A stretch of DNA of 64,000 nucleotides, from the NCBI RefSeq assembly GCF_016026235.1, contig NZ_CP065613.1; one strand, written 5' to 3'. Source of the stretch: Escherichia coli (GTDB lineage: Bacteria; Pseudomonadota; Gammaproteobacteria; Enterobacterales; Enterobacteriaceae). The notes below the pieces were generated by a model, which worked only from the letters and a program-made list of their open reading frames with translations, did not search any database and was not told the origin of the DNA. Positions 31,526 to 45,363 of this stretch are shown one piece after another (the stretch's first letter is position 1; every line of letters starts with the position of its first letter). The position numbers and the translations under genes are program-made.

Positions 31526-31629
31526 GTCATATTCCTGTAATATGACCGCCAGTAAATATACAGAATACTGGCGGGCGTGGTTGATTTTTAATAATCAGCT
31601 ATGAAGTTCTAATTTTGATATAATGCAAC

Positions 31630-35950: not shown

Positions 35951-36505
35951 TTATTTTAAAGAAAGTAATTGTTCCACAGTCATATTTTTAATTGCGCCCC
36001 GGTTAACAAGAGTCCATCCCTGTTTTTCCAGATAAAACCGGAAAGTCTCCAGGGTACAGACCAGTGCGCCATCAGGAACGGTTTCGGTGAATTCGACATT
36101 GCCGAATTTGTCGAAGTGAACAACCAGAGTGCGACCATCACCCGGAATCATCTTGTCAGCAGGTGGGGTGTTATTCTGGCGCAGTTCGGCCTCCATGCGG
36201 TCGAACTCAGCAATGTAGGCTTCCTTGAATGCGGCGGCTTTTTTGCCAGTGAAGCCCATCATCAGGAAAACGAAGCCGTTTTTGGTGATTTGGTACATTG
36301 GGCGTTTTTCGCCTTTGGCGTCGGTATAGGTGACGGGCTTAAAATTAAGCCGGTTAAACTCCGGCGAGCATTCGAGAGTTTCGATCTTCTGAATAACGTT
36401 TTTGTGCATTTTCCGGAAGAACTTCGCAACCGCAACAGACGTAGTGACAGCGCGACCATTTTCGATGGTTACGTCAGGGTGAGAAAGGGTAAGGATAGTA
36501 GCCAT
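35951..36505 (-). CDS. Rha-family phage regulatory protein
   Basis: MATILTLSHPDVTIENGRAVTTSVAVAKFFRKMHKNVIQKIETL... matches Rha domain pattern; GAGG RBS before this Met; ORF is open further upstream to 36799. Confidence 0.5.
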   Translation of the reverse strand: MATILTLSHPDVTIENGRAVTTSVAVAKFFRKMHKNVIQKIETLECSPEFNRLNFKPVTYTDAKGEKRPMYQITKNGFVFLMMGFTGKKAAAFKEAYIAEFDRMEAELRQNNTPPADKMIPGDGRTLVVHFDKFGNVEFTETVPDGALVCTLETFRFYLEKQGWTLVNRGAIKNMTVEQLLSLK

Positions 36506-36821
36506 GATGGCAGCCTCGATAGTCAGTTTAAATAACTCACCACCAGAGGTAGCAATCTCATGGGTGGTGAGACGCACAGGGTTGCTACAACCGGTGACTA
36601 CCGAAACCGGCCAGCCTTGCGGCTGCCCTGCACGCCCCACCATAATCTGAATGTGGCTGTGCTTGACGCATAAAAAAACCGCCTGAGCGCGGTTATGCGC
36701 AGTAGTCATCGTCGGGGTAGCAATCCCGGCCCCCGTTTTATGAGGTGCAGGTGCACTATAATTCCACCCGTTCTGGTTTTCAATAGCTACATTCAACATT
36801 TTCTCTCACCTTTCATCACCG

Positions 36822-37503: not shown

Positions 37504-37692
37504 ATATCCTGCACGGCCTTCTGCTTTGTAGAAGGCTTCTTCGCTATCATAATCGCCAGATTCCAGCGCTTCTTTAGCCAGCCAGATGCGTGCCCCAGTG
37601 CCTGCATTTGGCTCCAGTTGCTGGAGGCGTTTTGCATCTTCTGGGAGTAGAGCGATAACGTGTTTTAATTCTGTCTCGTTCATTTTACTCAC
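37480..37692 (-). CDS. small phage protein, YdaG-like
   Basis: 70-aa ORF adjacent to the ydaF-like gene as in Rac. Confidence 0.4.
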   Translation of the reverse strand: MSKMNETELKHVIALLPEDAKRLQQLEPNAGTGARIWLAKEALESGDYDSEEAFYKAEGRAGYSPGLGGV

Positions 37693-37840
37693 CTGAATGT
37701 CTTCCCAACCAACGACGTGCGCCAGCTTCGGTTTTAAACGTTTTGCTTTTGGTATACGTCATGGCGGTGAATGTGCCGTCCTGGTTGGGGAACACGCCGT
37801 ACACCAGAGATTCGTTGTTGCCAAGATCGATAGTATTCAT
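37685..37840 (-). CDS. small phage protein, YdaF-like
   Basis: MNTIDLGNNESLVYGVFPNQDGTFTAMTYTKSKTFKTE... matches my recollection of Rac YdaF (51 aa). Confidence 0.5.
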   Translation of the reverse strand: MNTIDLGNNESLVYGVFPNQDGTFTAMTYTKSKTFKTEAGARRWLGRHSGE

Positions 37841-37894
37841 GTTGACCCCATTTCCCCTTAACGCCGGGGTAGCGGAACTGTTTGCTGAGAACAC

Positions 37895-38042
37895 CGTGCG
37901 GTGTCTTGATGAATGAAATTTAGAATAACCTAAGATGGGCGGCCAAGATTTTTATGTAGAAAAACCTAAGTTTTTTGATGTAAAAAACACAAGTGTTTGA
38001 AAGTTTGTGCTTTTTATTACAGGGTGTGGAGAAAAAAGGGGA
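37895..38042. promoter_or_regulatory. putative leftward early promoter/operator region (OL-like) downstream of the repressor gene
   Basis: direct repeats tagaataacctaag and tagaaaaacctaag sharing the CCTAAG half-site seen at OR. Confidence 0.4.
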
Positions 38043-38450
38043 TTATTTGTTTGCGCTTCTTTTGCGAGCTTTGAGTAGTTCTTCAAAAAGTTTGTTGAAA
38101 TTTTCAACTCGAGCACGCATCTCTGACAACAGGGCCTTTTGCTCTGACTCAGGCAGTGCGTCGAACAGTTGAAGTAACTCTTTTTGATCTTCTGTCAGAA
38201 TGGCTGGCTGATTATCCGGGATCGGTTCGCCTGGTTGTTTATCTTCATCCCCAAAAAGAAGCCAAGTCGGTGAGCACTGAAGCGCTTGGCTCAGTGCGAA
38301 TAATCTTTTCCCCGCCGGCTGTGTTTCATCTCTTTCCCATTGAGAAATTGTTACGTGAGCCACTTTGACCAGCTTACCTAATGCGGCCTGAGACAGTTTT
38401 AATTTTTTACGCCTATGTAAGAGGCGAGCACCGAAGGTTTCGTTTTTCAT
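38043..38450 (-). CDS. prophage repressor (HTH-XRE; cI/RacR-like)
   Basis: N-terminal HTH LSQAALGKLVKVAHVTISQWERDE; divergent from the cro-like gene. Confidence 0.75.
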   Translation of the reverse strand: MKNETFGARLLHRRKKLKLSQAALGKLVKVAHVTISQWERDETQPAGKRLFALSQALQCSPTWLLFGDEDKQPGEPIPDNQPAILTEDQKELLQLFDALPESEQKALLSEMRARVENFNKLFEELLKARKRSANK

Positions 38451-38526
38451 ATTAGGGAATTCTAATTTTTCTTGACTTAGGTTTCTCTACGATCTAGTTT
38501 CCTTAGGAAAATCTAAGGAGCTCGAT
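38451..38526. promoter_or_regulatory. divergent promoter/operator region (OR-like) between repressor and cro-like gene
   Basis: TTGACT -35-like hexamer and inverted repeat CCTTAG-gaaaat-CTAAGG. Confidence 0.5.
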
Positions 38527-38754
38527 ATGTTGAAAATTGATGCTATAGCGTTTTTTGGCAGCAAAACAAAGCTTGCCAATGCCGCAGGAGTTAGGCTGGC
38601 AAGCATTGCTGCATGGGGGGAACTGGTTCCTGAAGGTCGCGCGATGCGCCTGCAAGAGGCATCTGGCGGGGAACTTCAGTACGACCCCAAAGTTTATGAC
38701 GAATATCGTAAGGCAAAACGACCTGGGAAGGTGATTCATGAAAATCAGGCATGA
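38527..38754 (+). CDS. Cro/YdaS-like small DNA-binding protein
   Basis: 75 aa, MLKIDAIAFFGSKTKLANAAGVRLASIAAWGE...; first rightward gene. Confidence 0.6.
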   Translation: MLKIDAIAFFGSKTKLANAAGVRLASIAAWGELVPEGRAMRLQEASGGELQYDPKVYDEYRKAKRPGKVIHENQA

Positions 38755-39160
38755 GCACATCGAATCAGTGCTGTTAGCCCTGGCAGCCGAAAAAGGGCAG
38801 GCGTGGGTCGCTAACGCAATTACTGAAGAATATCTGCGGCAGGGGGGCGGCGAATTGTCTCTGGTACCAGGCAAGGACTGGAACAATCAGCAGAATATCT
38901 ATCACCGTTGGTTGAAAGGTGAAACGAAAGCGCAAAGGGAAAAAATTCAGAAACTGATCCCTGTGGTTCTGGCAATTCTTCCGCGTGAGCTGCGTCACCG
39001 ACTCTGTATCTTCGATACCCTGGAACGCCGTGCATTACTGGCGGCGCAGGAAGCGTTGAGTACGGCAATTGATGCGCATGATGATGCTGTCCAGGCCGTT
39101 TACCGGAAAGCACATTTCAGCGGTGGTGGGTCGCCCGGCGATTCTGTCGTAGTGCATTGA
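38738..39160 (+). CDS. YdaT-like protein (CII-position)
   Basis: 140 aa, MKIRHEHIESVLLALAAEKGQAWVANAITEEYLRQGGGELSLVPGKDWNNQQNIYHRWLKGETKAQREKIQKLIP... resembles Rac YdaT. Confidence 0.6.
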   Translation: MKIRHEHIESVLLALAAEKGQAWVANAITEEYLRQGGGELSLVPGKDWNNQQNIYHRWLKGETKAQREKIQKLIPVVLAILPRELRHRLCIFDTLERRALLAAQEALSTAIDAHDDAVQAVYRKAHFSGGGSPGDSVVVH

Positions 39161-39237
39161 TTGAAATTAATCGTGCCGGATTGTTTTGTTCGGTATCAGT
39201 TAAATGTAACGCTGCGAGCGTTACAAGGTGAAAACAA

Positions 39238-42464: not shown

Positions 42465-42691
42465 TTTTATGGGGCACCTTTCTGATTGATTTCATATTGG
42501 CGAGGTAAGTAGAATGACTGCGGGTGCTTGAGGCTATCTGCTTCAGGCATGAACACCAAAAGGCAGATAGAGAAAAGCCCCAGTTAACATTACGCGTCCG
42601 GCAAGACGCTTAACATTAATCTGAGGCCAATTTCATGCTTTGCACATGTAGGTTAGCCTCTTACATGCCGAAAGGCAAGGAGAAGCAGGCT

Positions 42692-42847
42692 ATGAAGCAG
42701 CAAAAGGCGATGTTAATCGCCCTGATCGTCATCTGTTTAACCGTCATAGTGACGGCACTGGTAACGAGGAAAGACCTCTGTGAGGTACGAATCCGAACCG
42801 GCCAGACGGAGGTCGCTGTCTTCGTAGACTACGAATCCAGGAAGTAA
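42692..42847 (+). CDS. hok: Hok/Gef-family type I toxin (51 aa)
   Basis: MKQQKAMLIALIVICLTVIVTALVTRKDLCEVRIRTGQTEVAVFVDYESRK; in-frame upstream extension from 42635 resembles a mok-like leader ORF. Confidence 0.85.
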   Translation: MKQQKAMLIALIVICLTVIVTALVTRKDLCEVRIRTGQTEVAVFVDYESRK

Positions 42848-43096: not shown

Positions 43097-43384
43097 ATGA
43101 AAATCGAAGAATTGCGTGAAATTTTTAGTGAAAATGGCCTCTATGCTGTGCGCGTTGAGAATGGAGCGATTGTCAGCCATTGCCGCATTAGATGTTTGCA
43201 ATCTCAACAAAGGAAGAGCGGTGCTGTGTTATTTTATTTTTGTAATGGACTTCTGACGGACGGTTTTATTTTGCGTGAGGACGAATTTGTCACATCATTA
43301 CGGGTTTTGAAAGAGATTGGTTTTAAGGCTGGTTTTCTGCTTTTGCTGAAGAATAAACTCATCTACAATCTTGAGCAGGATTGA
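43097..43384 (+). CDS. hypothetical phage protein (95 aa)
   Basis: ORF with RBS, nin-like region. Confidence 0.35.
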   Translation: MKIEELREIFSENGLYAVRVENGAIVSHCRIRCLQSQQRKSGAVLFYFCNGLLTDGFILREDEFVTSLRVLKEIGFKAGFLLLLKNKLIYNLEQD

Positions 43385-45052: not shown

Positions 45053-45129
45053 GGCCCTTTAGCTCAGTTGGTCAGAGCGAGCGACTCATAATCGCCAGGT
45101 CGCTGGTTCAAGTCCAGCAAGGGCCACCA
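45053..45129 (+). tRNA. tRNA-Ile2 (anticodon CAU, lysidine-type; close relative of E. coli ileX)
   Basis: GGCCCTTTAGCTCAGTTGGTCAGAGCGAGCGACTCATAATCGCCAGGTCGCTGGTTCAAGTCCAGCAAGGGCCACCA; cannot fully exclude Met by sequence alone. Confidence 0.8.
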
Positions 45130-45130
45130 A

Positions 45131-45207
45131 CCACCACTAGCTCATCCGGATAGAGCATCAACCTTCTAAGTTGACGGTGCGAGGTTCGAGTCCTCGGTGG
45201 TGGGCCA
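45131..45207 (+). tRNA. tRNA-Arg (anticodon UCU)
   Basis: CCACCACTAGCTCATCCGGATAGAGCATCAACCTTCTAAGTTGACGGTGCGAGGTTCGAGTCCTCGGTGGTGGGCCA; cloverleaf folds, C1-G72 pair. Confidence 0.75.
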
Positions 45208-45209
45208 GC

Positions 45210-45285
<76 letters not shown>

Positions 45286-45288
45286 TAT

Positions 45289-45363
<75 letters not shown>

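Follow-up and report, generated by a model that had tools for sequence, protein, structure and literature searches.

A probable DicA/DicC-type (Qin-like) immunity switch and its palindromic operators in a lambdoid prophage of Escherichia coli

The repressor region of a lambdoid prophage was analysed in a 64,000-nucleotide stretch of an Escherichia coli chromosome (NCBI RefSeq assembly GCF_016026235.1, contig NZ_CP065613.1), hereafter the window, in which the prophage adjoins ybhA. Positions 37,895 to 38,526 contain a repressor gene and the non-coding stretches on its two sides, both of which are AT-rich (~34-35% G+C). The repressor gene (38043..38450, minus strand), which was identified from the open reading frame (ORF) list, Pfam and its identity to DicA of the K-12 prophage Qin, encodes 135 amino acids (aa). 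Its product was 62% identical over the full length to K-12 DicA, which also has 135 aa. Only HTH_3 and Phage_CI_repr were matched in Pfam, and no Peptidase_S24 (LexA-like cleavage) domain was found in the repressor by this search. Residues 2-69 matched the structures of the P22 C2 N-terminal domain (1ADR and 2R1J, E ~1e-21); the helix-turn-helix (HTH) was ~69% identical over residues 21-68, and the similarity to C2 stopped at approximately residue 69. The divergent gene (38527..38754, plus strand) encodes a 75-aa Cro-like protein, a DicC homologue that matched Pfam P22_Cro (PF14549, E = 3e-13, 49.7 bits against a cut-off of 30.2) and was 75% identical to K-12 DicC.

An earlier note, made from the letters alone, had described the 135-aa and divergent 75-aa ORFs, an inverted repeat, a TTGACT hexamer and two downstream 14-mers, and all of these elements were present where it had placed them. 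The inverted repeat CCTTAG-gaaaat-CTAAGG lies at 38501-38518, and its complementary arms reach 7 bp at 38500-38519; the hexamer lies at 38472-38477. The 14-mers tagaataacctaag (37921-37934) and tagaaaaacctaag (37957-37970) are identical at 13/14 positions, and in a repeat search the pair extended to 17 nt with 88% identity at a spacing of 36 bp. A half-site pattern search for (C)TTAG-N6-CTAA(G) with 0-2 mismatches found five sites, three of which are in the 76-bp divergent region (38451-38466, 38476-38491 and 38502-38517) and two downstream of the repressor gene (37919-37934 and 37955-37970). Hence, the elements listed in the earlier note were real, but two of the three sites in the divergent region, 38476-38491 (CTTAGgtttctCTACG) and 38451-38466 (ATTAGggaattCTAAT), had been missed. 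The centres of the three sites (38458.5, 38483.5 and 38509.5) are 25 and 26 bp apart. The sites on the two sides of the repressor gene had also been assigned different geometries, which was not borne out. Each downstream direct repeat is an imperfect palindrome (TTAG-N6-CTAAG and GTAG-N6-CTAAG) with the same 4+6+4 plan as the sites in the divergent region, and the reverse complement of the second is 94% identical to the middle divergent site.

The five sites, given here without strand, were designated after the operators that they resemble. The Oc-like operator TCCTTAG-gaaaat-CTAAGGA (38500..38519) is a perfect palindrome with 7-bp arms. The Om-like operator CTTAG-gtttct-CTACG (38476..38491) has one core mismatch and overlaps TTGACT, and the Oa-like operator ATTAG-ggaatt-CTAAT (38451..38466) adjoins the repressor ATG. 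Downstream of the repressor gene, and read on the minus strand, are the OL1-like operator CTTAG-gttatt-CTAAA (37919..37934) and the OL2-like operator CTTAG-gttttt-CTACA (37955..37970), the centres of which are 36 bp apart. A third OL site with ≤2 mismatches was not found in the window, and the relatives described below likewise have two.

The motif is short and the stretches are AT-rich; thus, the resemblance among the five sites might be fortuitous. However, exact TTAG-N6-CTAA occurred three times in 64 kb against 0.44 expected, and all three occurrences were within the non-coding stretches flanking the repressor and nowhere else in the window. The five sites were also the sole close matches (0-1 mismatch) in 64 kb. 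When ≤2 mismatches to CTTAG-N6-CTAAG were allowed, 5 of the 11 matches in the window fell inside these 224 bp (binomial P ~2e-10). Composition-matched local shuffles of the two stretches gave a mean of 0.08 matches against the five observed, and only 1 of 300 shuffles had two or more. Moreover, hundreds of loci show conservation of the sites and their covariation with the repressor. Chance similarity, which we regard as extremely improbable, is effectively refuted.

The promoters were assigned by homology with K-12 dicCp and dicBp and with P22 PR and PL because none of them was called in a generic scan of 37600-38800 for sigma-70 promoters and terminators, which gave matches only inside the repressor coding sequence. 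The cro-like (dicCp / PR-like) promoter (38472..38500, plus strand) is predicted to comprise a -35 TTGACT at 38472-38477, a 17-bp spacer and a -10 TAGTTT at 38495-38500; it scored 8/12, which is under the threshold of the consensus scan. When it is aligned with K-12 dicCp (TTGACT-17-TATCTT) and the P22 PR annotation, its predicted transcription start (+1) falls at ~38507. The hexamer of the earlier note can thereby be read as the -35 element of this promoter. The Oc-like operator adjoins the -10, starting at its last base, and spans the predicted +1. The leftward (dicBp / PL-like) promoter (37917..37946, minus strand) is predicted to have a -35 TTGGCC at 37946 to 37941, an 18-bp spacer and a -10 TAAATT at 37922 to 37917. 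The alignment with K-12 dicBp (TTGACC-17-TAATCT) and P22 PL predicts the A of CATCAAG, at 37910, as its +1. The OL1-like operator lies between this -35 and -10 and overlaps the -10, and the OL2-like operator is just upstream of the -35. The putative -10 of the repressor maintenance promoter, TAGAAT (minus strand, 38464 to 38459), is contained in the Oa-like operator. Only 8 nt separate this -10 from the repressor ATG; the repressor transcript, with a predicted start at ~38453 (minus strand), is therefore probably almost without a leader, like that of P22 c2.

Two observations concerned the leftward side. The -35 at 37941-37946 is TTGACC in nearly all relatives, and the G found here was shared by 1 of ~70 viral-contig relatives; TTGGCC may represent a promoter-down change of a resident prophage. 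A terminator-like A/U-rich 12-bp hairpin followed by a U-run (37981..38016, minus strand) is located after the repressor stop codon and before OL2, and RNA folding of it gave -9.6 kcal/mol (z = -3.9). The hairpin is kept in window-type relatives and was missed by the consensus terminator scan owing to its small number of G-C pairs. It resembles a terminator that would end the maintenance transcript.

The K-12 Qin operators have been characterised experimentally. Oc confers DicA-dependent repression in vivo, including in front of a heterologous gene, and a single A-to-C change within its CTAA abolishes DicA binding/repression (PMC3441716). Oc overlaps the dicC -10, the dicC start was mapped by 5' rapid amplification of cDNA ends (RACE), and DicA at Oc activates dicA transcription (PMC3441716). 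DicA also represses dicBp, Rem is the DicA antirepressor, and DicA and DicC together form a bistable switch (PMC10448788). The motif of DicC in chromatin immunoprecipitation sequencing (ChIP-seq) was the palindrome TT(A/C/T)G...C(G/A/T)AA, with one inferred DicC site on each side of dicA (PMC11430063). The sequence of K-12 Oc is TTGTTAGTCATAACTAACAA, which is read as TTGTTAG-TCATAA-CTAACAA and is the equivalent, in position and sequence, of 38500-38519 in the window. When placed in the same orientation, the K-12 dicA-dicC region contains TTAG-ctaatg-CTAA beside dicA, a degenerate middle site, and TGTTAG-ttatga-CTAACA beside dicC. Downstream of dicA is TTAG-ccatga-CTAA, and 35 bp from it is a second, degenerate site. 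Hence, the sites in the window correspond in position and sequence to a set of operators with experimental support.

The Oc-like palindrome could instead act in RNA, namely, as a hairpin in the cro-like leader that masks the Shine-Dalgarno sequence and exerts translational control, rather than as a protein site. Its right arm overlaps the Shine-Dalgarno AAGGAG, and a transcript with both arms folded at -9.6 kcal/mol (z = -1.96). However, the predicted +1 at ~38507 falls in the loop, so that the left arm would be untranscribed, and the remaining leader was not significantly structured (z = -0.64); the hairpin would need a transcription start upstream of 38500. Furthermore, the motif recurs at four places outside the cro-like mRNA, and K-12 Oc acts as a DNA operator before a heterologous gene. 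This translational explanation was therefore judged to be very unlikely.

Conservation was evaluated in 232 DicA-type loci, which were taken from phage records and viral contigs; 71 of them, whose repressors are ≥95% identical to that of the window, formed the window-type subset. The OL region of these 71 loci had 35 unique variants, in which the 6 bases between the -35 and OL1 were hypervariable; the OL1 and OL2 columns changed in at most 2 of the 35. The Oc-like half-sites were invariant in 13 distinct repressor variants of the window type. Across types, the half-sites were fixed and the central 6 bp varied; the K-12 type, for example, has TCATAA, TCATGA, CCATAA, CCATGG and TTATGA. The TTAG-N6-CTAA core at the Oa position was kept in all TTAG-type relatives despite differing centres. 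Repressors with other recognition helices had other palindromes at the same positions: TTGAG-N4-CTCAA in HannyBb and mEp460 (SGSSISLWE), CTAAC-N4-GTTAG in Cronobacter phiES15 (SSVSVFKWE) and TTAAG-N4-CTTAA in P22 (SNVAISQWE).

Taken together, the region is in all likelihood the immunity switch of a DicA/DicC (Qin-like) lambdoid prophage, and the repeats are in all likelihood its operators, built on one palindromic plan. The proposal of the earlier note that the repeats flanking the repressor gene form OR-like and OL-like clusters for one repressor agrees with this interpretation, which rests on homology to Qin DicA/DicC and P22 immC, on the published K-12 binding, and on conservation and covariation. 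DicA/DicC and their P22-immC-related operator plan have been known since the 1980s. The switch is a new allele of this known, widespread system, and there is no new kind of regulation. For the window allele itself, we infer binding, the promoter starts, the roles of Om, Oa and OL2, and the specificity by analogy with the characterised systems.

Several points weigh against this interpretation. K-12 DicA failed to bind Om or Oa when the two were assayed singly in vivo (PMC3441716); the middle and repressor-proximal sites may need cooperativity or be weak. The Qin literature has three operator sequences per region (PMC10448788), compared with the two recognisable OL sites here. The generic scan called neither promoter, each has only 3-4/6 in one hexamer, and the leftward -35 is TTGGCC rather than the usual TTGACC. 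The whole OR region is well conserved among close relatives, so that conservation within the type does not single out the sites. Moreover, the covariation classes represent few independent lineages.

The first of these points is also the basis of a narrower explanation, according to which only the Oc-like palindrome, and perhaps OL1, is functional, and the Om-like, Oa-like and OL2 sites are relics of P22-type tripartite operators. In addition to the in vivo binding of K-12 DicA to Oc and not to Om or Oa (PMC3441716), this explanation is favoured by the core mismatch that Om and OL2 each have in one half-site. However, the Oa core was kept beside the repressor ATG in every TTAG-type relative although the centres differed. 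As reverse complements, OL2 and Om agree at 94%, and OL2 was conserved where nearby bases varied. In addition, isolated-site assays such as those in K-12 would miss cooperative binding. We consider partial function unlikely, and it is the serious residual uncertainty about the five-site operator set.

The mode of action of the switch can be proposed from the characterised relatives. The 135-aa repressor is presumed to be a dimer, like P22 C2, and would recognise 14-20 bp palindromes with a TTAG-N6-CTAA core. Occupation of Oc, possibly together with Om, would turn off the operon of the cro-like, ydaT-like and replication genes and would stimulate transcription of the repressor gene, as shown for K-12 DicA. 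Autorepression would result when Oa is filled at a high repressor level. OL1 and OL2, when occupied, would together repress the early-left operon led by ydfA. The DicC-like Cro protein would act at the operators of the repressor too and switch off the repressor gene, so that the switch would be bistable. Induction would proceed via an antirepressor, with the Rem homologue as the candidate inducer, and not by RecA-stimulated cleavage. The Rem homologue is encoded at 43097..43336 (plus strand; tblastn, 67.5% identity to K-12 Rem, E = 6e-29). LexA boxes (CTGT-N8-ACAG) were not found in the window, which gives no sign of an SOS-controlled antirepressor. Given the lack of a cleavage domain in the repressor, the presence of a Rem homologue and the absence of LexA boxes from the window, induction by an antirepressor, as in Qin, appears most likely. 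The Rem gene lies directly after a hok/sok module (sok 42522-42697), and the arrangement in Qin is the same.

The base flanking TTAG tracked residue 22 of the repressor, which is at the start of helix 2. Ala or Ser at this position occurred with C/C flanks in 14 distinct proteins including that of the window, Arg with G/G flanks in 23 distinct proteins, and Lys with A/A flanks in 2. Two repressors that share the recognition helix of the window but have Arg22 were associated with G flanks. These comparisons suggest that the window allele has its own immunity specificity, which differs from that of K-12 DicA, and they make plausible the earlier claim that the sites define immunity specificity. 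The base pair outside the TTAG-N6-CTAA core might be read by residue 22, which would give at least three heteroimmune specificities with the window as the 'C-flank' type; this proposal is tentative and, in our estimate, somewhat more doubtful than probable. The residue-22 rule stays a hypothesis because the classes represent few independent lineages. To our knowledge, nobody has characterised the 'C-flank' specificity. If the proposal is true, a common core with different flanks could mean partial cross-repression among co-resident prophages and on host genes. The relation between residue 22 and the flanking base is a simple rule that could be used to predict which DicA-type prophages are homoimmune or cross-regulating. 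This covariation is the only mildly new element, and there is no new mechanism.

A separate observation concerned three relatives (OR variants ending ...CCTTAGATTTTCCTACCG / ...CCTACTG) that have the same repressor and a different cro-side gene. The switch point in their sequences falls exactly within the Oc palindrome, with loss of the right half-site. Judging from these joints, the Oc operator appears to be a mosaic recombination joint.

The ydfA-like gene (37685..37840, minus strand; Pfam DUF1391, E = 9e-28) encodes 51 aa, is the first gene of the leftward operon, and has an equal position in K-12 Qin and in a 99.7%-identical E. coli record; the operon contains the ydfA-like and Rha-family genes. 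Beside the cro-like gene are a YdaT-family (CII-analogue) gene (38738..39160, plus strand; Pfam YdaT_toxin), a replication-protein gene and a DnaC-like gene. No Rfam family was matched in or near the operator region, even at E values up to 5. Megablast matched the region in 2757 of 5426 complete E. coli genomes, 750 of which cover at least 80% of it, and there were up to five matching places per genome. In GenBank records of "PPompW" prophages from Shiga toxin (Stx)-producing strains, the same genes are annotated dicA and dicC. The value of the analysis is in annotation, as it gives the operators, promoters and probable induction route of an allele that hundreds of E. coli genomes carry, some of them in the prophages of Shiga-toxin strains.

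The ~70-nt leader that separates the leftward promoter from the first gene of the operon (37841-37910, minus strand) was conserved across heteroimmune DicA-type prophages regardless of the gene that follows. It contains two hairpins and the conserved linker CUCAGCAAAACGUUCCGC. Compensatory changes were seen in the first stem (ACACC/GGTGT, AACCAC/GTGGTT and AATCAC/GTGATT) and in the second stem (CCCC/GGGG, GCCG/CGGC and GCC/GGC), the loop GGCG(U/A)UAA of which is conserved. RNAalifold on a MAFFT alignment of the leader gave only 3 pairs with the first hairpin misaligned; single-sequence folds were used instead. The leader had no Rfam match, and its thermodynamic z was unremarkable (-0.39). The HK022 put RNA (putL) was considered as a model, and by eye no sequence or structure resemblance to it was seen, nor to P22 nutL. 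The leader could be an uncharacterised cis-acting leader RNA.

Further along the repressor-controlled leftward operon, a 282-aa 'Rha family' ORF (35951-36799, minus strand) has an N-terminal Pfam Phage_ASH match. On the same strand, it overlaps Rfam hits at 36560-36647 and 36672-36748, which are to C4 antisense RNA with 75.7 bits and to IsrK with 57.6 bits. Its 'Ash' N-terminus may in fact correspond to a region of RNA control, of the kind represented by P1 c4/ant or Gifsy IsrK, ahead of a shorter Rha or antirepressor gene. A cluster of four tRNAs (45053-45360, plus strand) was found within the late region of the prophage, downstream from both the replication and the hok/sok modules; a near-identical E. 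coli record annotates them as Ile, Arg, Thr and Gly.

The YdaT-box and its role have been described for Rac and CP-933P (PMC11879457). Exact YdaT-boxes (TGATT-N6-AATCA) occurred at two places in the window, one at 38732-38747 (TGATT-catgaa-AATCA) over the YdaT-like start codon and one at 31582-31597, ~40 bp upstream of the RalA small RNA gene. A box with one mismatch was found at the YdaT-like stop codon (39158-39173). Matches with ≤1 mismatch were enriched in the window, with 9 observed against 2.85 expected.

The switch was compared with four known systems. Rac, which the earlier note had suggested for the comparison of operators, was not the right comparator for the repressor: the window repressor is unrelated to K-12 RacR (BLASTP E = 2.9), and Qin DicA and P22 C2 are the right ones. 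The Cro-like protein also differed from the Rac type, as it scored as P22_Cro and was below the YdaS_toxin family cut-off in Pfam. The likeness to Rac consists of the YdaT-family gene, the YdaT-box over its start codon and the ydaU- and ydaV-like replication genes that follow, with RalA elsewhere in the prophage. The short non-cleavable repressor, the Rem-type antirepressor homologue and the lack of a LexA box in the window resemble the Gifsy type, which has been discussed for DicA (PMC10448788); this resemblance is one of logic only.

The layout is collinear with the annotated OR1-3, PR, PRM, OL and PL of P22 immC, and as in P22 and lambda there are three OR sites, ~2.4 helical turns apart, which overlap the divergent PR-like and PRM-like promoters. 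In both P22 and the window, the OR2/Om-like site adjoins a shared AGTCAA (TTGACT -35), and the OR3/Oa-like site adjoins the repressor ATG; the annotated PRM start of P22 precedes the c2 ATG by 4 nt. In P22, OL1 is flanked by TTGACC and TAAATT, and its placement is the same in K-12 dicBp and in the window. The annotated 5' nucleotide of P22 PL is the A of CATCAG, so that the transcript starts at CATCA in both, by prediction in the window. However, the P22 half-sites are TTAAG with a 4-bp centre, or TTAA-N6-TTAA in the 14-bp frame, compared with TTAG-N6-CTAA in the window. The C-terminal domain of C2 is cleaved on RecA stimulation, whereas the C-terminus of the window repressor is short and unrelated. 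P22 has nutL and gene 24 annotated after PL, whereas the window has an unrelated leader and then ydfA, and three OL sites are annotated in P22 compared with the two found here. In evolutionary terms, the module is P22-immC-like, with a repressor that has lost the LexA-like cleavage domain.

The closest comparison is with Qin. The window differs from it in the core flanks (CTTAG/CTAAG compared with GTTAG/CTAAC), in the central 6 bp (A/T-rich and asymmetric compared with CCATGG-like), in helix 2 (SQAALGKLVK compared with TQRSLAKALK) and in the overlap of the Oc right arm with the cro-like Shine-Dalgarno sequence. The dicF/dicB cargo, which belongs to Qin rather than to the switch as such, was not found downstream, and the Rfam scan of the whole window gave no match to DicF. 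In both prophages, a 135-aa repressor without a cleavage domain is divergent from the gene of a DicC-type Cro-like protein, with three sites between them, and a 20-bp palindrome with a TTAG-N6-CTAA core adjoins the cro-like -10. Both have a second promoter and two sites downstream of the repressor gene, spaced 36 bp apart here and 35 bp apart in K-12, and then ydfA (DUF1391), and Rem is represented in the window by its homologue. Hence, the features of a Qin-type module were found in the window, namely, a short HTH repressor, a divergent DicC gene, an Oc-like operator with two weaker sites, and a predicted operator-bearing promoter downstream that leads into ydfA.

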